Shown: positions 95 through 52,482 of the stretch, piece after piece | Numbering within the stretch: position 1 is the stretch's first letter | Layout: every line of letters begins with the position of its first letter | Source: Candidatus Tectimicrobiota bacterium | GTDB taxonomy: Bacteria > JACPUC01 | Direction of reading: 5' to 3' | Length of the DNA: 64,000 bases | Assembly: GCA_016192455.1 (NCBI GenBank) | Contig: JACPUC010000029.1 | Location: 124,001 to 188,000 of the forward strand | Notes under the pieces: model-generated | Databases searched by the model: none | What the model was told of the DNA's origin: nothing | What the model saw: the letters and a program-made list of their open reading frames with translations, nothing else | Program-made: the position numbers and the translations under genes

Positions 95-745
95 TCAGGC
101 TGCGGCGGGGCTGGCCAGGGCCTCGAGCGCCGCGGCATGCCCGCGGCGGAAGGCCGCAAGGTTGCGCTCCGCCGAGCCCTTCGGCGCCCGCTGCGCCACG
201 ATGGTCTCGATCTCCTCCGCCGCCACCTCGAGCCCGCCGCAGGCGGCCAGCGCTCCCAGCATGACGACGTTCATCGACATGTGGTGCCCCACCTCCTCGG
301 CGCGCGCCGTGGCATCGAAGGCCACCACCCCGGCGCCGAGCTGCCGCAGGTAGTCGATGATCCAGGGTGTCTCGGGGTAGCCCAGGGGGCGCGGCTCGGG
401 CGAGAAGATGTCGCGGCCCAGCGTCTCGAAGGTGGGCATGACGCGCCGCGTGTTCATGATCACCCTGCCGCCGCGCTTGGCGTAGAGCGCCCCCAGGCGC
501 AGCGTCTCCAGCGGCTCGAAGCCGACGAGGAGGTCCGCGCCGCCGTAAGGGATGAAGTTCGTGAACTCCTCCTGGTCGGCGGAGTAGCGGATTTCGGTGA
601 TCACCAGGGTGGCGCGATGGGCGGTCCCCAGGCAGTCCTTGGTGGAGATGGCGTATCCCTTGGAGGCCAACAGATCGGCCAAGATGCGGCTGAAGAGCAG
701 GATGCCGGAGCCGGAGAGGCCGGTGACGAGCACGTTGGTGATCAT
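95..745 (-). CDS. iorB: Indolepyruvate:ferredoxin oxidoreductase beta subunit-like (divergent)
   Basis: C-terminal part of ORF 95..2524 from ATG 745: MITNVLVTGLSGSG...ADLLVGFEPLE...NVVMLGAL...NLAAFRRG; directly downstream of iorA. Confidence 0.8.
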   Translation of the reverse strand: MITNVLVTGLSGSGILLFSRILADLLASKGYAISTKDCLGTAHRATLVITEIRYSADQEEFTNFIPYGGADLLVGFEPLETLRLGALYAKRGGRVIMNTRRVMPTFETLGRDIFSPEPRPLGYPETPWIIDYLRQLGAGVVAFDATARAEEVGHHMSMNVVMLGALAACGGLEVAAEEIETIVAQRAPKGSAERNLAAFRRGHAAALEALASPAAA

Positions 746-759
746 GCTGGGTCTCCCTC

Positions 760-2769
760 TCAGGCGTCCGCGGGGTGGATGGCGTGCGGCCCGCACACTT
801 GCTCGCAGAGGCCGCAGCCGTTGCAGAAGGTCGGGTCGATGGAAAGGAGGTGATCGTCGCGCATGATGGCCAGGCAGCCGAGGGTGTCGAAGCACTCGCG
901 GCACTTGCCGTTGCGCATGTAGGTGCAGAGCTGCGGGTCGATCTCGTAGGTGCTGAAGTTGACCTTGCCGCGTCCCCCCAGGGCGCGCTCGGCGAGGATC
1001 GAGCAGGCCCGCCGGGTGATGACCATGGAGACGCCCTCGGCCGCCAGGGCGCGTTCGAGGGCCTTGCGCGTCGCCTTCAGGTCGAAGGGATCGACGACCT
1101 CGATGGGCTCGATGCCGATGGCCGCCGCGATCTTCTCGATGCTCAGGATGCCGGTCGTGTCTCGCTTGGCGGTGAGGCCGAAGGCGCCCGGATGCGGCTG
1201 CTGCCCGGTGGCGCCGATGCACTGGTTGTCGTAGAGGACGACGGTGAAGGAGGAGCCGTTGTAGACGGCATTGATCAGCTCGGGCAGGGCGGCGTGGAAG
1301 AAGGTGCCGTCGCCCATCTGCACCACCTGCTTGTCGCCCAGCTTCACGCGGTACATGCCGTGCGCCAGGCCGGGGCCGGCGCCCATGCAGATGATCGTGT
1401 GCATGGCGTCCCAGGGCGGGTAGATGGCGCGCTCGTAGCAGCCGATGTCGCCGTGCGACACGAAGTCCTCCTTGCAGACCCGGCGCAGGGCGCGCGTCAA
1501 GGCGTACATCGTCCCCATCTCCGGGCAGCCGGGGCAGAGCGCCCCTTGGGGACGCTTGGTGATCTGCTCGGCAACGAACGTCATCGCCTGCCGGCTGCGC
1601 TCCGGGGCAAGGAGCGGCGCGAAGGTCCGGCCGGTGAGCTGGGCCAACGGCTCGGCGACGTGCTCGGCGCTCAGCTCGTCGGTGGCCGGCAGGTGGCCGG
1701 TCTTCTTGCCGAGGATGCGGGCGTGCCGGTCGAGGTCCGCCGACAGGTCGCGCACGAAGGTCTCGATCACCGGCTCGATCTCTTCCACCACCAGCACCGT
1801 TTCGAGGCTCTTCAGCATGGCCTCGACCTTGCCGCGCGGCAGGGGGTTGGCGGCGCAGAGCTTCAGGGTGGCGACCTCGTCCGCCACGCCGAGCTGGGCG
1901 ATGGCCTCGGCGGCCGCCTGGTAGGCCATGCCGGAGCCGATGATCCCCAGCCGCTCGTGTCAGTTGAGCTTCAGGCGGTGGTGCGGCATGGCGTCGATGG
2001 CCGTCTGCAGCTTCGGCAAGGTCTCGGCGTGGTACTTCTGGTGCCGCATCAAAACGGTGTTCTCCCAGCGCGGCCCCATCTCGGCGGACCACAGGAGGGG
2101 GTTCTTCTCGAAGCGCGGCTGGCGTTTCCAGGGGGCGGAATCGATCGGCCCCAGCGTCACGAGGCCGCGGCCATAGAGGAGCTGCCGCACCAGGCGCAGC
2201 ATCACCGGCGCCTGCACCTCTTCGGAGAGGGCGAAGGCGTAGCAGGCGAGGTCCTTGGCGTCCTGGTAGCTCGCCGGTTCGAGGACGGCCATCTCGGCGG
2301 CCACGCCGAGCCAGCGCGCATCCCCTTCGCTCGACGAGGTGTTGGCGCCCGGGTCGTCCCCCACCGCCAGCACCAGACCTCCGGGCGTGCGCATGGTGTA
2401 GGAGCAGAGGAGGGGGTCCATGACCCAGTTCATGCCGTTGTTCTTGAAGATCGCCATGGCGCGCACGCCGCACATGGCCGCCCCCAGGGCCGCCTCGAAG
2501 GCGACCTTCTCGTTGCTGGACCATTCGGCGTGGAAGTCGTAGGCGCGGGCCGCCTGGGCGAGGTTCTCGAGGATGTAGGTGGCGGGCGAGCCGGGGTAGG
2601 AGGTAGCGAGGCCGATGCCCGCTTCAAGAGCGCCGCGGGCCACCGCTTCGCAGCCGCTGAGGAGGACCGTGTCGCCGGGCTGGCCGCCGATGACCGCGTG
2701 GCTCTCCCACTTCTTGTTGGTCTTCTCGGCGTACTGTCCCTGCCCGGCGCGAATGGAACTCTTGCTCAC
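760..2769 (-). pseudogene. iorA: Indolepyruvate:ferredoxin oxidoreductase alpha subunit interrupted by an in-frame TGA at 1960-1962
   Basis: ORFs 1960..2793 and 760..1929 are in the same frame (...KLN*HERLGIIGSGMAY...). Motifs: YPGSP, NEKVAFE, GDDPG, CPGCP, GDIGCY, TPP-binding GDGTF..N, C-terminal ferredoxin CNGCGLCEQVC. GTG start 2769 follows AAGGAG. Confidence 0.75.
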
Positions 2770-39120: not shown

Positions 39121-39179
39121 CCTTCATCGCCAGCCGCAGGGTAACCCCGATGAGCTTTTTTTGCGGCTGGCTATGGAGG
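39121..39179. terminator. Long imperfect hairpin at the 3' end of the ATPase/TOPRIM pair
   Basis: GCCAGCCGCA / TGCGGCTGGC core with extendable arms. Confidence 0.4.
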
Positions 39180-39779
39180 ACTTCCCAAAAGTTCGCTGAG
39201 GCGTTGGCGGCAGCGTCTCAAACTGTCGGAGCGCCTGGCGGCCATGCCCGGCCTCCAATGCTGGGCGGCGAACTCGCTGAGGTAGGAGGTATAGAGAGGA
39301 CCCACCTTGCGGCCGCTTCCGAGGCGGGGGGGCAGGTGCTCGCGCACGTCCTTGCGACGCGACTTCCGGGCAAGCTGAACGACGGTTTCCTTGGGATTCT
39401 CAAGTTGCTCCGGCCTTTGGGGGATCGTTGATCCCGCCACGCCGAAAAAAGCAGCGAACTCCTCCATGTCGGCAAGGAGCCACGCCTCCACCGCGCGGAC
39501 GGCAACGCGGAAGCACATGTGCCGCGCCGGATCAGGCAGGTGGCGGACGCGAAACGGCGGGGCGCAGTCTGCATCCCCATTGAGATCAACCAAGACGAGC
39601 CATCTGCCGTGTTGTGCGGCCTGGTTATACCCCCGAAGCTTCTGCAAGAGATGCGGCTTGCCATTCTTGCCATACACGGAACCGGTCTTCGCCCCTGCGC
39701 TTGCAAAAAGGCGGCGCAGCACGACTTCATCCACAATTCCTTCCACCACGCAGTTTACGAGGATGCCAGACTCAGCCAC
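39171..39779 (-). CDS. TOPRIM-like (DUF4276-like) putative nuclease
   Basis: VVEG.VD, VLVDLNGD, AVRAVEAWLLAD, PE.LENPK; starts a few bases downstream of the ATPase. Confidence 0.7.
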   Translation of the reverse strand: MAESGILVNCVVEGIVDEVVLRRLFASAGAKTGSVYGKNGKPHLLQKLRGYNQAAQHGRWLVLVDLNGDADCAPPFRVRHLPDPARHMCFRVAVRAVEAWLLADMEEFAAFFGVAGSTIPQRPEQLENPKETVVQLARKSRRKDVREHLPPRLGSGRKVGPLYTSYLSEFAAQHWRPGMAARRSDSLRRCRQRLSELLGSPP

Positions 39780-39785
39780 AATCGT

Positions 39786-40946
39786 TCAAGCTCCAAACAT
39801 CGAGAGGTTTTCAGCACGCTCGGGTCGGGTGCGGGGCATGACTGCTTCACCAAGGTGGTGTCCGCCATCAAGCAGGTCCATAATTTCGTCGAACGCGCTT
39901 GCCGGCCGAACGGCCGTTCCTTCGTGCTGCGGCATGAAGAGCAGGGCCTCGTCGAGGCCGATTCCCGGATCGGTCAGGAGATCGGCGGAATGGGTGCTGA
40001 GAATGATCTGCCGCCCTGAATCACGCTGGATGCGGGCGAACATCTGGGGGATGTATCTCACCACCTCCGGATGCAGGGAGAGCTCCGGCTCCTCGAGCAG
40101 GAGTGGTCCGGACCCATCGAGCAAAGCCCAGAGCAAGCCCATAAGCCGCAATGTGCCATCGGAAAACTGCTCCTCACTTTGCCAAGCGCCACGGTGGCGC
40201 CAGTGCTCGTACTTTCCACGTAGGTGAGGGGTGCCTCGTACATCCCGATGGAGCTCAAGACCACTCAATTGCGGCACAGCCACACGTAATGCATCCAGGA
40301 TGCGCCGGAGCCGTGAGGCTTGGGTTTTCTCCGGAGCACGGGCAATCTGCTCGATAAAATCTCCACCATAGGGATCGTGCTGCCTACCAATGGAACGATC
40401 TGGTTCGCGTACCAGTTGAGGGACAACGTGCAGGTAGCGGATCGAGCCAAAAAAATCAACCAACTCACGAAACTTTTGATTGGCGTAAACCTGTTCGAGA
40501 TGGGTTTGCGTCAGCCTTTCAGGATCACGTCGGTCATTCCCGTCCGGCCTCTTCAAGATGATGTCGTCATTCTTAATCACCAGTTCTTCTTTAATCATTG
40601 GTCTCTGACGGTTGTCCTGGCTGAAGCGCAGACTGTATTCCCATGTTTCTGCTTCTTCTTCGGGGCCAACTTCCACATTGATGAGAAGATCAGAATACCG
40701 ACGAGCTGCCAAGCAACGGAGACGCGAGACGCCATCCCTTTTCCGAACAGCTTCTTGAAAGCCTCCACCCACAGAAACGATGTCCCGAAGGAAACGGAAC
40801 ACATCGAGAAAGTTCGACTTCCCGGAGGCATTCGGACCGACGAGGAAGACGCGGCGCTGAAGAACTAGATCAACGTCTGCGAAGTTGCGCCAGTTTGCGA
40901 GCTTTAGCGCTGCAACGCGGAGCGCCTTTTTCGCTGCTCGTTTCAC
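39786..40946 (-). CDS. AAA_21-type ABC ATPase
   Basis: GPNASGKS, FSDGT signature, LLLEEPE, STHS; GTG 40946 after GGAGG; AT-richer than flanks. Confidence 0.88.
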   Translation of the reverse strand: MKRAAKKALRVAALKLANWRNFADVDLVLQRRVFLVGPNASGKSNFLDVFRFLRDIVSVGGGFQEAVRKRDGVSRLRCLAARRYSDLLINVEVGPEEEAETWEYSLRFSQDNRQRPMIKEELVIKNDDIILKRPDGNDRRDPERLTQTHLEQVYANQKFRELVDFFGSIRYLHVVPQLVREPDRSIGRQHDPYGGDFIEQIARAPEKTQASRLRRILDALRVAVPQLSGLELHRDVRGTPHLRGKYEHWRHRGAWQSEEQFSDGTLRLMGLLWALLDGSGPLLLEEPELSLHPEVVRYIPQMFARIQRDSGRQIILSTHSADLLTDPGIGLDEALLFMPQHEGTAVRPASAFDEIMDLLDGGHHLGEAVMPRTRPERAENLSMFGA

Positions 40947-41078
40947 TTGCGTACCTCCGCTTGATGCCACAGTTCAGAAAAAACGTCGTTCACGCTCGTA
41001 ACCGCAATATCCAGCTCGCCTTGGAAAGGTTGGCGAAGGTGGCGCGCCTCGGAGCCGTCGTCGTCCACGCGCGCAAGG
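40943..41078 (-). pseudogene. 3' remnant resembling the C-terminus of DUF3883-containing SNF2-type helicases
   Basis: Start-less frame LARVDDDGSEARHLRQPFQGELDIAVTSVNDVFSELWHQAEVRK*, whose TGA overlaps the ATPase GTG; family recognised from memory. Confidence 0.5.
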
Positions 41079-41507: not shown

Positions 41508-41960
41508 CTATGACGGCTTGGCGACGTCGCCTTCGGCAACGAGACCGGAGACGCGCAGCGGCTCGATCTTGTAAATGACGCGGCGCTCGGGCTTGCGATA
41601 GGGGAACTTGTCGACGCCGAGGTTCTTGAAGGGGTAGACATCGAGGCCGAGGTACTTCTTCGCCAGCTTGTCGATGTGCTCGTCCGCCCCCTCTTCGGTG
41701 ATCTCCACCACGCGGCCGCGTATCTCGAAGCGGGTGTACGGATTGTCCGGATCGATGCAGGAGAGCGCCACCTCCGGGCGGCGGCGGATGTTGCGGTCCT
41801 TCAGGCGGCCGACGGCGGAGTTGACGATCACGTACGCGCCGTCAAAGTCGCACCACACCGGCGACACCTGCGGGCTGCCGTCGGCCATCGCCGTGGCCAG
41901 GTGGACGAAGGCCCGCTTCTTCAAAATCTCCTGGCACCACTCGGGTATCGCAACCGCCAC
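41508..41960 (-). CDS. PPOX-class (putative F420-dependent) oxidoreductase
   Basis: HLAT.MADGSPQVSPVW, GRLK.RNIRR.PEVAL, HIDKLAKKYLG; GTG 41960 after GGAGG; TTGACA-N17-TACAAA at 42111-42139. Confidence 0.88.
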   Translation of the reverse strand: MAVAIPEWCQEILKKRAFVHLATAMADGSPQVSPVWCDFDGAYVIVNSAVGRLKDRNIRRRPEVALSCIDPDNPYTRFEIRGRVVEITEEGADEHIDKLAKKYLGLDVYPFKNLGVDKFPYRKPERRVIYKIEPLRVSGLVAEGDVAKPS

Positions 41961-42262
41961 CTTCGCCTCCCCGTCGCGCCCGCGCGGCGCGTGTCGTGTG
42001 GATTCTCTCCTGCCTTCCATCGCCTCCTCCGCGAGGGAGCAATGCCCCCTCGCTCACCCCGCCACGCGAGCCGCGTCGCGGCGCGCGGGAGTCCGATTGG
42101 GAGCACTTCCTTTGTAACGTAGAGCGTCCGGGGTGTCAAGCTTTCCCCGCCGCAGCCAGCGTCGGGCTTTTCCAAGCGTAGAGGGCGAGGCGAAGGGAAG
42201 GTCGCGGCCCCCGGGAAAAGGACATCAACGAGTCATCAGAAGGTTCTCAGTGCCCACCAGTA

Positions 42263-42483
42263 CCAAAAGAAGCCCCCAACTCTTGAGTTGGGGGCTTCTA
42301 GGCCCCTCAGTGGGACTGCGACCCACTGCCGACTTCTGAACCGGTCGGGGGTAGGCAATTGGCGTGTTACTTCATTCGGCAGTATCGTGCGCTTCTAGGC
42401 CTTGGGTTCCTTTGCCGACTCTAACGGCGCCTACCTAACGGAAATGTGCAATATCGCCTTCAAGGCGGCATCACCTCCCTTCA
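42263..42483 (-). ncRNA. Candidate ~220-nt small transcript (structured RNA with SD and 10-aa mini-ORF)
   Basis: Bounded by a near-consensus promoter and an intrinsic terminator; contains AAGGGAGGTGAT, mini-ORF 42463-42431 and three stems. Confidence 0.55.
42265..42299 (-). terminator. Intrinsic terminator
   Basis: 15-bp inverted repeat AGAAGCCCCCAACTC / GAGTTGGGGGCTTCT followed by T residues on the minus strand. Confidence 0.75.
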
Positions 42484-42489
42484 AAGTGC

Positions 42490-42517
42490 ATTATACGTAG
42501 TTTTTACATTCAGTCAA
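42490..42517 (-). promoter_or_regulatory. sigma70-type promoter
   Basis: Minus strand TTGACT-N16-TATAAT. Confidence 0.7.
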
Positions 42518-42706
42518 GCATCTAAACCAGAAGGGAGATGATAATCCAAAAGCCCAAAGGATATACTTCAAAACGATCAACCAACATGTGCAAATCGAGC
42601 AGGAAGAAGTCTATTCAGGGTCGCACCCGTTCAGGTAGAATGGTCTAAGCATGCCTGCAGGGAGAACTTTCCTCACCGCCCACCTCGCCCCCAAGGAGAT
42701 GCCCCG

Positions 42707-43804
42707 ATGCTCCGACCCTACTCCGCCACCTGCGTGCAGTCGATCATCCGCAAGGTGAAGAGCAAGGCCTCGAAGGAGGCCACCATGCGCGAGAACCTCT
42801 ACCGCAACCTCTCCCTCATCGACAACCTGACGAACCTCGGCTGGGCGCCGCCGAAGCTCTTCGCTTTCCCGGAGTTTTTCCTGCAGGGCTTCCCGTCGGG
42901 CGAGAGCCTGGCGGAGTGGCTCGAGGTCGCCATCCGCATCCCCGGCGCGGAGACCGACGTGCTGGCCGCCTGCGCCAGGGCCAAGGGCATCTACCTCGCG
43001 GCCCACGCCTACGAGGTGGACGAGGAGTGGCCGGGGCGCGTCTTCAACACCGCCTTCATCATCGACCCGCGGGGCGACATCATCCTGCGCTACCGCAAGC
43101 TCAACAGCCCCGTCACCACCACGCCGGGGGACGTCTTCACAGAGTACCTCGAGCGCTACGGCATCGAGGGCGTCTTCCCGGTGGCCGACACACCCATCGG
43201 CAAGCTGGCCTGCATGATCTGCTACGACGTGAACTTCCCCGAGGTGGCGCGCTGCCTGGCGATGCGCGGCGCCGAGGTCATCCTGCACCTCACCGGCGAG
43301 CCCCACGGGAGCTACCGCGACGCCTGGGACTGCGCCAAGCGCGCCCGCGCCTACGAGAACCTCGTTTACATCGTCTCGCCGAACCACGGCATGTACCTGT
43401 CGCCGCTTGACGACGAGCGCTTCGCCGACGCCTCGGGCCTCCTCTTCCAGGACCGCCAGGCGCACCCCATCGCGCCGATGTTCCGCTCCTACGGCCACTC
43501 GAAGATCATCGGCCCGGACGGCAAGATTCTCGCCGAGGTGAACGGCCCCGGCGAGGCGGTCATTTCCGCCCCCATCGACATCGAGGCGCTGCGCTACCGG
43601 CGCGCCCAGCCGGGCATGAACTTCCTCGCCCAGGTACGCACCGGCCTCTTCGCCAAGGTCTACGAGCAGACCGAGCTCTACCCCCTCGACACCTTCGCCA
43701 AGGAACCGATGCAGACCCTCTGGCAGGAGAACAGCGCCATCACGCGGCAGACCATCGCGGGGATGATCGAGCGGGGTATCTACGCGGCGCCAAGCGGGCC
43801 ATAG
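42707..43804 (+). CDS. Nitrilase-family carbon-nitrogen hydrolase
   Basis: Catalytic triad contexts FPE, YRK, ICYD; AAGGAG SD. Confidence 0.9.
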   Translation: MLRPYSATCVQSIIRKVKSKASKEATMRENLYRNLSLIDNLTNLGWAPPKLFAFPEFFLQGFPSGESLAEWLEVAIRIPGAETDVLAACARAKGIYLAAHAYEVDEEWPGRVFNTAFIIDPRGDIILRYRKLNSPVTTTPGDVFTEYLERYGIEGVFPVADTPIGKLACMICYDVNFPEVARCLAMRGAEVILHLTGEPHGSYRDAWDCAKRARAYENLVYIVSPNHGMYLSPLDDERFADASGLLFQDRQAHPIAPMFRSYGHSKIIGPDGKILAEVNGPGEAVISAPIDIEALRYRRAQPGMNFLAQVRTGLFAKVYEQTELYPLDTFAKEPMQTLWQENSAITRQTIAGMIERGIYAAPSGP

Positions 43805-44097
43805 CTCAAAGAAGTCCGAGCATATCTGCAGCATAGCAATCACATCCGTAGACAGACGGCGCAGCCCTCACCTATCTTCACACGCAAAGGAGTTGGCGCC
43901 CCGCCGAGTATCAGCCGCAACTTTCCTTGCATCGCTTCGCGGCAAGAAGCCTCAGCACCTCCCAGATAGAAAGAAGGCTCTTTGGGCGAGCCTCTTGTCA
44001 AGTAAAGTTCCTAAGGCTCGTGTAATTCGAGACGCAGGGGAAGGCGTTTTTCTACGTACAGACAATAGCGTCTCACATATGTTCGAAGTTAACAGAT

Positions 44098-45336
44098 CTA
44101 CTCCCTACGAGCAAACTTATTGGCGAAGATACTAACCATCCCCCCTAGCATTAGATAGCCAATGACCACTTCAAGTGTCACAAAAAGTTGGCCAGATAAA
44201 TTGCAAGGTCGAATATCCCCAAAGCCGAGAGTCGTAAACGTAACAACGCTGAAATACCACGGAGTAAACCACGTCTTGGCACTTTGTATCACTATACAGG
44301 GATCGCCTACTTCCCGCAACCAACTTTGTAAATCCGGCCACCTCTCAAACCAGTGAGTGAAACCGAGGTTAGAATATAAGAACCCGAATATCAATGCAAT
44401 AACGGCTTCTGTCGCACACCATCTTTTAAAGTTTCGGCCGTAATCTGATGTGACACCCCAAAGAAAATGAAGCAATGAACGTATCCCCCACCTCGGTTGA
44501 AAGAATGCATATTTGCTTGCTAGGCACAGTTTTCGTATTCCTTTTCCCGCTTCTAAATTAGTCCGCCGATTTGTGGATAACCAAGAGAGAATTTCGCGTT
44601 CACGCTGTCCTAAGAAGATCTCGTCATACAGATGACGCTTGAAACTTGGATGGTGGTCTAATGTTGGCTGGCCATATAGCCTCAGACCACGCAGTCGAGT
44701 CTTGCCATTGAAGTTAACTTCTGTAATATCGGCAAAAAATGTAGACCCTGAAAGAATTGCTGAGGAAATATTTGCTCTTGTCAAGTTCGTCTGGATAAGC
44801 TCCGCCTGGTGAAGATTAGCGCCCTCGAGATTAGCGTCAGTCAAGTCTGCATTAAAGAGATTAGCCAGTGTAAGGTCGGCACCAAGGAATGAAGCATATG
44901 AGAGCTTAGCTTCTCGTAAATCAGCACATCGCATTTTGGCCTTGCTGAAGTTTACTCCTATAAGTCTTGCTCCAAAGAGATGGGCTAGAAAAAGACTTGC
45001 TCCCTGGAGAGATGACCCAGTAAGATCAGCGCTTCCAAGCTGAACCTCATTAAGCTCAGCACCATCGAACGCCGTGAGATGAAACCTCGTCCGACGAAGA
45101 TCTAATTTGCTTAGAATTGCACTACAGAGATTTGCATGGTCGAATGAGGCATCTTCGAGTTTTGCATCACTTAGGTTGGCCTTTCTAAGATTGGCTCTGT
45201 CAAAATTTGCCCCTCTGAGATCGAGTCCAGTTAGATCGGTCGAACTCAAGTCCGGATTCTGAGAATCCTCTTCCCTCCATTTGTTCCATTTCTTAACGCC
45301 TTGGTTGAGCTTCTCCAGATGCTCTTTGTTTGCCAT
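44098..45336 (-). CDS. Pentapeptide-repeat protein with C-terminal two-TM potassium-channel-like domain
   Basis: A(D/N)LxxA repeats; DYGRN; YFSVVTFTTLGFGDI pore motif; clearly AT-rich. Confidence 0.88.
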   Translation of the reverse strand: MANKEHLEKLNQGVKKWNKWREEDSQNPDLSSTDLTGLDLRGANFDRANLRKANLSDAKLEDASFDHANLCSAILSKLDLRRTRFHLTAFDGAELNEVQLGSADLTGSSLQGASLFLAHLFGARLIGVNFSKAKMRCADLREAKLSYASFLGADLTLANLFNADLTDANLEGANLHQAELIQTNLTRANISSAILSGSTFFADITEVNFNGKTRLRGLRLYGQPTLDHHPSFKRHLYDEIFLGQREREILSWLSTNRRTNLEAGKGIRKLCLASKYAFFQPRWGIRSLLHFLWGVTSDYGRNFKRWCATEAVIALIFGFLYSNLGFTHWFERWPDLQSWLREVGDPCIVIQSAKTWFTPWYFSVVTFTTLGFGDIRPCNLSGQLFVTLEVVIGYLMLGGMVSIFANKFARRE

Positions 45337-52407: not shown

Positions 52408-52482
52408 GCCCCCGTAGCTCAGGGGATAGAGCAGTGGACTCCGGATCCATGTGCGCAGGTTCGACTCCTGCCGGGGGTACCA
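52408..52482 (+). tRNA. tRNA-Arg (anticodon CCG)
   Basis: Acceptor GCCCCCG/CGGGGGT, D-arm, anticodon arm GTGGA-CTCCGGA-TCCAT, GGTTCGACTCC, encoded CCA. Confidence 0.95.

Follow-up and report, generated by a model that had tools for sequence, protein, structure and literature searches.

A putative stand-alone small RNA gene with a masked ribosome-binding site and a rare-codon mini-frame in a groundwater bacterium of the Candidatus Tectimicrobiota

The minus strand of a 64,000-nucleotide (nt) stretch of DNA from Candidatus Tectimicrobiota bacterium JACPUC01 (GenBank assembly GCA_016192455.1, contig JACPUC010000029.1, positions 124,001 to 188,000; hereafter the window, whose numbering is used throughout unless another contig is named) carries at positions 42263–42517 a compact element which, judged from its sequence, is credibly a true, self-standing transcription unit for an RNA of ~219 nt, from ~42482 to ~42265. 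Our favoured view, held tentatively and somewhat short of an even chance, is that this RNA is itself the functional product, a trans-acting or protein-binding riboregulator with possibly a dual function, and not the leader of a neighbouring gene. The host is an uncultivated groundwater bacterium with a genome of 4.46 Mb in 31 contigs (66.8% guanine plus cytosine, GC; 88% complete), the sole representative of its phylum in the genome set compared here, and the unit sits between two enzyme genes. An original prediction had described at this place a promoter, a Shine-Dalgarno (SD) sequence, a mini open reading frame (ORF), several stems and hairpins, a terminator and a repeated 11-mer, and all of these elements were recovered on the minus strand exactly where it had put them.

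Transcription would start from a near-consensus sigma-70-type promoter (42490–42517, minus strand) that matches the consensus at 11 of 12 positions, with TTGACT (42517–42512) and TATAAT (42495–42490) separated by a 16-nt spacer; the position of the −10 box predicts a start at ~42483–42481. Promoter-like sites with at least 11 of 12 matches number 49 on both strands of the 4.46-Mb genome, the one described here among them, against ~2–3 expected by chance according to our composition-based estimate, and the organism therefore uses this consensus. At the other end, the RNA would be closed near 42265 by a strong intrinsic terminator (42265–42299, minus strand), built on a 15-nt perfect inverted repeat (42299–42285 with 42282–42268; effectively 13–14 bp plus a 4-nt loop) followed by UUUU, with a z value of −3.65 (z values compare the stability of a fold with that of shuffled sequence, and rest on 300 shuffles for the 5' hairpin and the long stem described below). 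Only four hairpins in the genome combine a perfect stem of 11 bp or more with TTTT behind it, this terminator included; of the other three, one ends a tRNA operon and two stand behind large enzyme genes. None of the other 48 promoters has, inside 450 nt, a hairpin-plus-U terminator as strong as that of the unit (−24.1 kcal/mol). Both signals lie on one strand, 215–220 nt apart in a non-coding gap, which bears out the earlier proposal of an unannotated small RNA (sRNA) or micropeptide gene.

The gap in question, of ~750 nt, holds the unit on its minus strand without any coding-like frame, and the ORFs of at least 20 amino acids (aa) that lie inside the unit extend through the terminator. Upstream and divergent from it, a CN hydrolase gene (42707–43804, plus strand; Pfam E = 3e-40) comes with an SD of its own and, at 42538–42567 (plus strand), with a promoter-like site, the minus-strand frame 42611–43843 being a shadow of this plus-strand gene. 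Since the minus strand has no gene for ~1.6 kb upstream, the terminator can serve only the promoter of the unit. In the same study, another run yielded a contig that matches 42038–43181 with 0 differences; the sequence is thus not an assembly artefact, even if this match does not constitute independent support.

The predicted RNA opens, 1–3 nt from its start, with an extended SD-like sequence, AAGGGAGGUGAU (in DNA AAGGGAGGTGAT; 42470–42481, minus strand). Its core GGAGGUGAU is, as we take it, complementary over 9 nt to the usual 3' tail of 16S rRNA, the 16S 3' end itself being missing from this metagenome-assembled genome (MAG). The sequence GGAGGTGAT occurs 136 times in the genome, which gives an expectation of 0.0033 per 219 nt, and the 11-mer AAGGGAGGTGA has only five occurrences genome-wide, one of which precedes by 5 nt the ATG of a frame that opens with MTKAELVEAI (contig C10), presumably an HU-like gene. 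In the unit, GGAGG stands 10 nt and GGAGGUGAU 6 nt upstream of a UUG that opens the mini-ORF UUG AAG GCG AUA UUG CAC AUU UCC GUU AGG UAG (42431–42463, minus strand), 10 codons plus stop that read (L/M)KAILHISVR. Ribosome-binding site and start codon are both caught in a 5' hairpin of −18.4 kcal/mol (42437–42481, minus strand; z −3.3, with 3 of 300 shuffles as stable), which pairs GGGAGGUG with CACAUUUCC, two G-U pairs included, and leaves the UUG at the apical loop; in this predicted fold the SD has an unpaired probability of ~0.

Rare codons account for five of the nine post-start sense codons of the mini-ORF. As had been expected of ATA and AGG, the former, at 0.36 per 1000 codons (0.8% of those for Ile), is the rarest sense codon checked in the genome and the latter makes up 4.3% of Arg codons, while TTG, GTT and ATT represent 6% of Leu, 5.7% of Val and 10% of Ile codons, respectively. 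In this 67% GC genome, rare codons of such a kind resemble non-coding AT-richer sequence. The GC content by codon position is uneven (0.27/0.27/0.73), our hypergeometric estimate for a skew of this kind in one frame being ~0.02.

The minimum free energy (MFE) fold of the whole molecule reaches −86 kcal/mol (z about −3.1; −1.39 without the terminator) and shows a CGCCU/AGGCG mini-hairpin around the UUG, as well as a GGUAGGC...GCCUACC stem with an inner UCGGCA/UGCCGA pairing. This long interrupted stem (42353–42436, minus strand), with a large loop that carries the first copy of the 11-mer, was equalled in stability by 34 of 300 shuffles (z −1.03), and the two small hairpins that follow it in the MFE fold (42348–42329 and 42328–42308, together 42308–42348, minus strand) gave z −1.53. 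Thus, among the elements listed in the original prediction, the promoter, the SD, the 5' hairpin, the 11-mer and the terminator are non-random, but the long stem and the middle hairpins do not stand out from chance.

The 11-mer GGCCUAGAAGC (in DNA GGCCTAGAAGC) is present twice on the minus strand, 86 nt apart: copy 1 (42391–42401) has local pairing near nil (−0.6 kcal/mol), and copy 2 (42294–42304) enters the terminator. Direct repeats of at least 11 nt appeared in 28 of 5000 dinucleotide shuffles (P = 0.0056), and the sequence is unique to the unit within the genome, where CTAG itself is scarce (1660 sites). A second repeat, AGUCGGCA, lies in the 5' arm of the inner stem (copy a, 42413–42420, minus strand) and within the first of the two small hairpins (copy b, 42327–42334, minus strand); ACUGCCGA (42376–42383, minus strand) is a possible partner of either, over 6 bp for copy a, the pairing seen in the MFE fold, and over 8 bp for copy b. 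An alignment of one half of the body with the other, GUU.AG.AGUCGGCA...CCCA...GGCCUAGAAGC, scores 27, against 17.6 +/- 3.4 for shuffled sequence (33 of 2000 shuffles reach 27), which suggests an old internal duplication of a ~50-nt module; the two modules, now diverged, have only 11 + 8 identical nt in common. The alternative pairing that the 11-mer had been thought to allow shrinks to 6 nt (AGAAGC with GCUUCU). No antiterminator fold was found either: the terminator persists in the unconstrained fold and was never displaced in the four ribosome-masking folds, which place a ribosome on AUA or on the stop codon, or keep the first 66 or the first 100 nt single-stranded.

From these features we infer transcription of the unit, action of its RNA in trans and a partner for it. 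In the mechanism that we favour, the first 45 nt of the transcript would fold into a stable hairpin protecting the 5' end, and the same hairpin would lock the SD and the UUG, so that the 10-codon frame would be translated little or only conditionally; the mostly exposed, repeated GGCCUAGAAGC would then be the best candidate for partner contact. sRNAs of the SgrS/SgrT, Spot 42/SpfP and SR1/SR1P type, 100–300 nt long, have their own promoter and an intrinsic terminator. The unit is like these terminated, dual-function sRNAs in its promoter, 5' stem-loop, intergenic site, strong terminator and optional short ORF, but differs from the SgrS type in that it comes without a family match, homolog, identifiable seed or target, and in that its ORF has 10 codons and its unusually long SD is fully masked. 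It is credible, from the arrangement of its signals, as an orphan sRNA gene of a known general kind in which the masked mini-ORF is unusual.

Several observations weigh against a regulatory RNA of this sort. The 9-nt anti-SD complement, improbable by chance, and the codon-position skew of the mini-ORF both speak for real ribosome engagement, and the middle of the RNA is no more stable than shuffled sequence (z −1.0 to −1.5). The rest of the genome contains no full complement of the 11-mer, a duplex scan at all CTAG sites yielded nothing above background, and duplexes with the start regions of the CN hydrolase gene and of the downstream gene stayed within background by a method that is poor on long RNAs. 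Hairpins with a CUAGAA loop, found at 5 of 175 CTAGAA sites compared with 2.4% for control loops, are not enriched. A simple scan revealed no promoter for the downstream gene between 42263 and 41960, so that read-through from the unit may matter. Moreover, the searches described below returned no homolog.

Searches with Rfam 15 covered the whole window, where only a tRNA at 52408–52479 reached its gathering score. No family reached E = 0.001 on the unit, and a permissive scan of 41880–42650 retrieved terminator look-alikes only; the best match on the unit, ctRNA_p42d, scored 25.2 bits against a gathering score of 50 and covered the terminator hairpin alone. The known family whose appearance the original prediction had named as evidence against itself did not turn up. 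Since RNase P (contig C31) and tmRNA (contig C7) were detected with high scores, the Rfam models work in this lineage. Within the host genome, blastn-short and nhmmer returned only the unit itself and SD-like 13–20-mers as possible paralogs; no homolog was found in 60 other genomes (0/60), related at domain level only, and blastn gave no match in plasmids and phages. A pattern scan for the 11-mer, a gap of 75–100 and the 11-mer again detected 4 loci in genome contigs and 0 in viral contigs, and in metagenome contigs a stricter pattern gave 0 loci and a looser one 29. All 33 loci were rejected as homologs, as they consist of tandem, coding or local repeats with at most 15 nt of similarity to the unit.

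On an Acidiferrales MAG contig (L009, ~530–830, minus strand), an sRNA-like unit of ~110 nt forms a tandem duplication just upstream of an ORF beginning MKRLTLQEAIEE, with a TTGACA-type promoter ahead and each copy ending in a terminator-like hairpin whose loop contains GGCCUAGAAGC; it is unrelated to the unit of the window beyond 12 nt. Three GC-rich metagenome contigs (L021, L036 and L041) hold tandem arrays with a period of ~95 nt, each repeat unit including CGTGCGACGGCCTAGAAGCCCC.

Among the alternatives, the one that we consider unlikely and yet a serious contender is that the RNA is mainly a translated mini-gene, encoding a MKAILHISVR micropeptide, sequestering tRNAs or ribosomes, or being remodelled by translation, with the 5' hairpin as a fourU-like on/off gate. 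Conditional translation stays the main rival because of the improbable 9-nt SD and the GC3-skewed frame, and it would also be consistent with the copy of AAGGGAGGTGA ahead of the MTKAELVEAI frame, the 10-nt GGAGG-UUG spacing, the presence of ATA as the rarest codon checked and the G-U-rich pairing that holds the SD. The same pairing, however, leaves the SD practically no unpaired probability; UUG starts are weak, the spacing is rather long, five rare codons in nine are what non-coding AT-richer sequence would be expected to give, those codons stand singly and away from the start, and a membrane toxin would need a longer peptide. In fourU-type thermometers, weak A-U and G-U pairs tie the SD to a U-rich strand, and the genes controlled are full-length heat-shock or virulence genes; the unit is similar in having its SD paired near the 5' end with G-U pairs, but its frame has 10 codons and no Rfam match was obtained. 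In lambda bar-type toxic minigenes, an early rare codon can lead to peptidyl-tRNA drop-off and tRNA sequestration, in frames of 2–8 codons with an accessible SD, whereas here the frame has 10 codons and the SD is masked. 'Hungry codon' effects (PMC2490762) belong to the same comparison, the unit likewise having a short ORF behind an SD and a rare codon early in the frame.

The parallel offered by the original prediction was CreT of the CreTA system, which PMC8501985 describes as a small RNA with a strong SD, a mini-ORF that uses AUA or AGA as minor codons and, further downstream, a stable stem-loop. According to the same paper, a UUG start works when the SD is strong, a precedent for a translated mini-gene here, and two consecutive minor codons near the start are required (PMC8501985). 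CreTA modules also have an adjacent creA with a CRISPR-repeat-like sequence, beside a type I cas operon, and the growth arrest by CreT is relieved when common synonymous codons are used. The likeness held for the strong SD, though it is fully paired in the predicted fold, and for the rare codons as such; it failed in that AUA and AGG occur once each in the frame, as codons 4 and 10, not consecutive and not next to the start, and in that the SD is locked. No CRISPR-repeat-like creA or cas gene was found near the unit, and no array in the window between 30000 and 55000. The genome does contain a CRISPR array with 7 copies of a 37-nt repeat on contig C9 (C9:121058-121590), adjoining the only Cas1 match (C9:122278-123111), and the alignment of this repeat to 41900–42900 is no better than that of 22% of random windows. 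Membership in CreTA was consequently rejected, as the rare codons are not consecutive and Cas1 and the array lie on contig C9 without a repeat-like element near the unit. A structurally gated minigene, in which opening of the hairpin by heat, processing or a partner would let ribosomes load and the rare AUA and AGG would trap ribosomes or tRNAs and slow growth, seems very improbable to us; if true, it would represent a CreT-like logic repressed by RNA structure instead of by Cascade.

Less likely again, and doubtful, is a role of the unit as a cis-acting leader. Downstream on the same strand lies a PPOX-class, PNPOx-like gene, without a PADLOC match, whose longest frame (41508–42020, minus strand) has 170 aa. 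This frame is probably ~20 codons too long, the true start being a GTG near 41960 with GGGGAGG ahead, because homologs mostly have 130–134 aa, relatives show indels that are not multiples of three at 41968–42027, in the region of the 5' extension, and the extension (42020–41961) has no codon-position bias. A start near 41960 therefore leaves a GC-rich non-coding spacer of ~300 nt after the terminator (41961–42264, minus strand), without coding periodicity or noteworthy structure (fold z −0.30), in which GC by codon position is flat, compared with 0.65/0.40/0.90 in the PPOX gene. An ORF of 84 aa at 42175–41921 was discarded as non-coding (GC 0.62/0.69/0.71 by codon position), and the only Rfam match at 42262–41950 was dinG (21 bits, E = 0.22). 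The persistence of the terminator under ribosome masking, together with this spacer, argues against a leader.

In its most explicit form, a leader of the PPOX-class (F420/FMN-type) gene would act through a factor that stabilises the hairpin GGGGC[CUAGAA]GCCCC, by antitermination resembling that of ANTAR proteins or of ribonucleic antiterminators (RAT), with copy 1 of the 11-mer as a recruitment site. Copy 2 can indeed fold into this hairpin (−9.7 kcal/mol), which has AGAAGCCCC in common with the 5' arm of the terminator, excludes that arm through the shared GCCCC and forms in the fold of a 205-nt prefix; an identical 11-mer lies upstream. The best promoter candidate found by eye for the PPOX gene, TTGACA-17-TACAAA, has its final T absent, and the leader role stays the second rival because a recognisable PPOX promoter is lacking. 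According to PMC8934654, in ANTAR leaders the second hexaloop overlaps the terminator, an extension of the linker by 20 nt abolishes EutV action, and the hexaloop begins with A and has G as its fourth base. The unit is like dual-hexaloop leaders such as EutX/Rli55 in having two identical hexaloop elements with G4 and a second hairpin that excludes the 5' arm of the terminator, but its CUAGAA loops have C at position 1, they are 86 nt apart instead of joined by a short linker, and the first hairpin is barely stable. The ~300-nt unstructured spacer before the start codon and the lack of enrichment of CUAGAA hairpins stand against a leader as well. The ANTAR domain PF03861 matched none of 38 candidates (0/38), in a weak search that matched none of 14 control genomes either and that covered a genome 88% complete.

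We also considered it improbable that the unit has no present function, being the shell of a decayed or deleted, possibly horizontally acquired gene, or a chance juxtaposition in an AT-richer intergenic region. Such an origin would fit the failure to find a homolog or paralog in any collection searched, the middle of the RNA, unstructured beyond chance, and the low-GC islands on either side of the area. Relatives of the CN hydrolase exist at 94% and 70% identity (53% for the best JGI relative), and in three runs with a relative the contigs span both flanking genes, yet none spans 42053–42684, which is a data gap, uninformative in itself and not proof of absence; the sequencing runs listed as containing a match included no RNA run. 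On the other hand, several independent non-random signals are gathered within ~255 bp, the SD is precisely masked and an exact 11-nt repeat has been kept, features that relics tend to lose.

A diverged 6S RNA, signal recognition particle (SRP) RNA or known riboswitch is extremely improbable: although RF00013, RF00169 and RF01854 (6S, small SRP and large SRP) gave no match in the 88%-complete genome (RF00169 scored on 150 of 426 first-look candidates), leaving those RNAs to be accounted for, no Rfam family reached threshold on the unit while RNase P and tmRNA were found, the ends are unpaired and the fold is multi-hairpin instead of the rod of 6S RNA, which had no match at E up to 10, and SRP RNA likewise had no match at E up to 10 and no helix-8 motif, in the form in which we assume it, by eye or in a genome motif scan allowing at most 1 mismatch. 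Two look-alikes of the SRP motif, at C1:20219 and C15:115786, had no Rfam match.

Two other options raised by the original prediction did not hold. A translation-coupled attenuator of the leader-peptide type (trp/his/ilv) conflicts with a terminator that is present in all four masking folds and with a next gene that lies ~300 nt on and is not biosynthetic. A type I toxin-antitoxin (TA) unit conflicts with a peptide of 10 residues, against roughly 20–60 aa for the hydrophobic toxins of this type, and with the lack of an antisense promoter into the unit, the only promoter-like site on the plus strand (42538–42567) pointing away. A type III, ToxIN-like TA system, in which near-identical RNA repeats in tandem precede a terminator and the gene of an endoribonuclease toxin, was rejected too, as the repeats are too diverged and the downstream PNPOx-like gene has no PADLOC match.

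Elsewhere in the window, a two-gene candidate defence pair occupies 39171–40970 (minus strand), part of it in a lower-GC patch (0.48–0.56): an AAA_21/AAA_15 ATPase (39786–40970, minus strand) matching PADLOC HEC-01A with E = 5e-156, and a DUF4276-like protein (39171–39779, minus strand) matching HEC-01B with E = 5e-60. A gene at 44098–45336 (minus strand), with a GC content of 0.44–0.46 in the 67% GC genome, fuses a pentapeptide-repeat domain to an Ion_trans_2 channel domain and was probably acquired horizontally. On contig C12 (~64330–64760, plus strand), a TTGACT...TATAGT promoter precedes a pair of tRNA genes, behind which stands a terminator with a perfect stem of 11 bp and a T7 run.

Overall, textbook sigma-70 promoters and intrinsic terminators are used for stable RNAs in this organism, and the combination of a maximal but masked SD with a rare-codon mini-frame is unusual. 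The unit remains one among many orphan sRNA predictions; if transcribed, it would count among the early candidates for a regulatory RNA in a lineage of phylum rank that only metagenomes have revealed.

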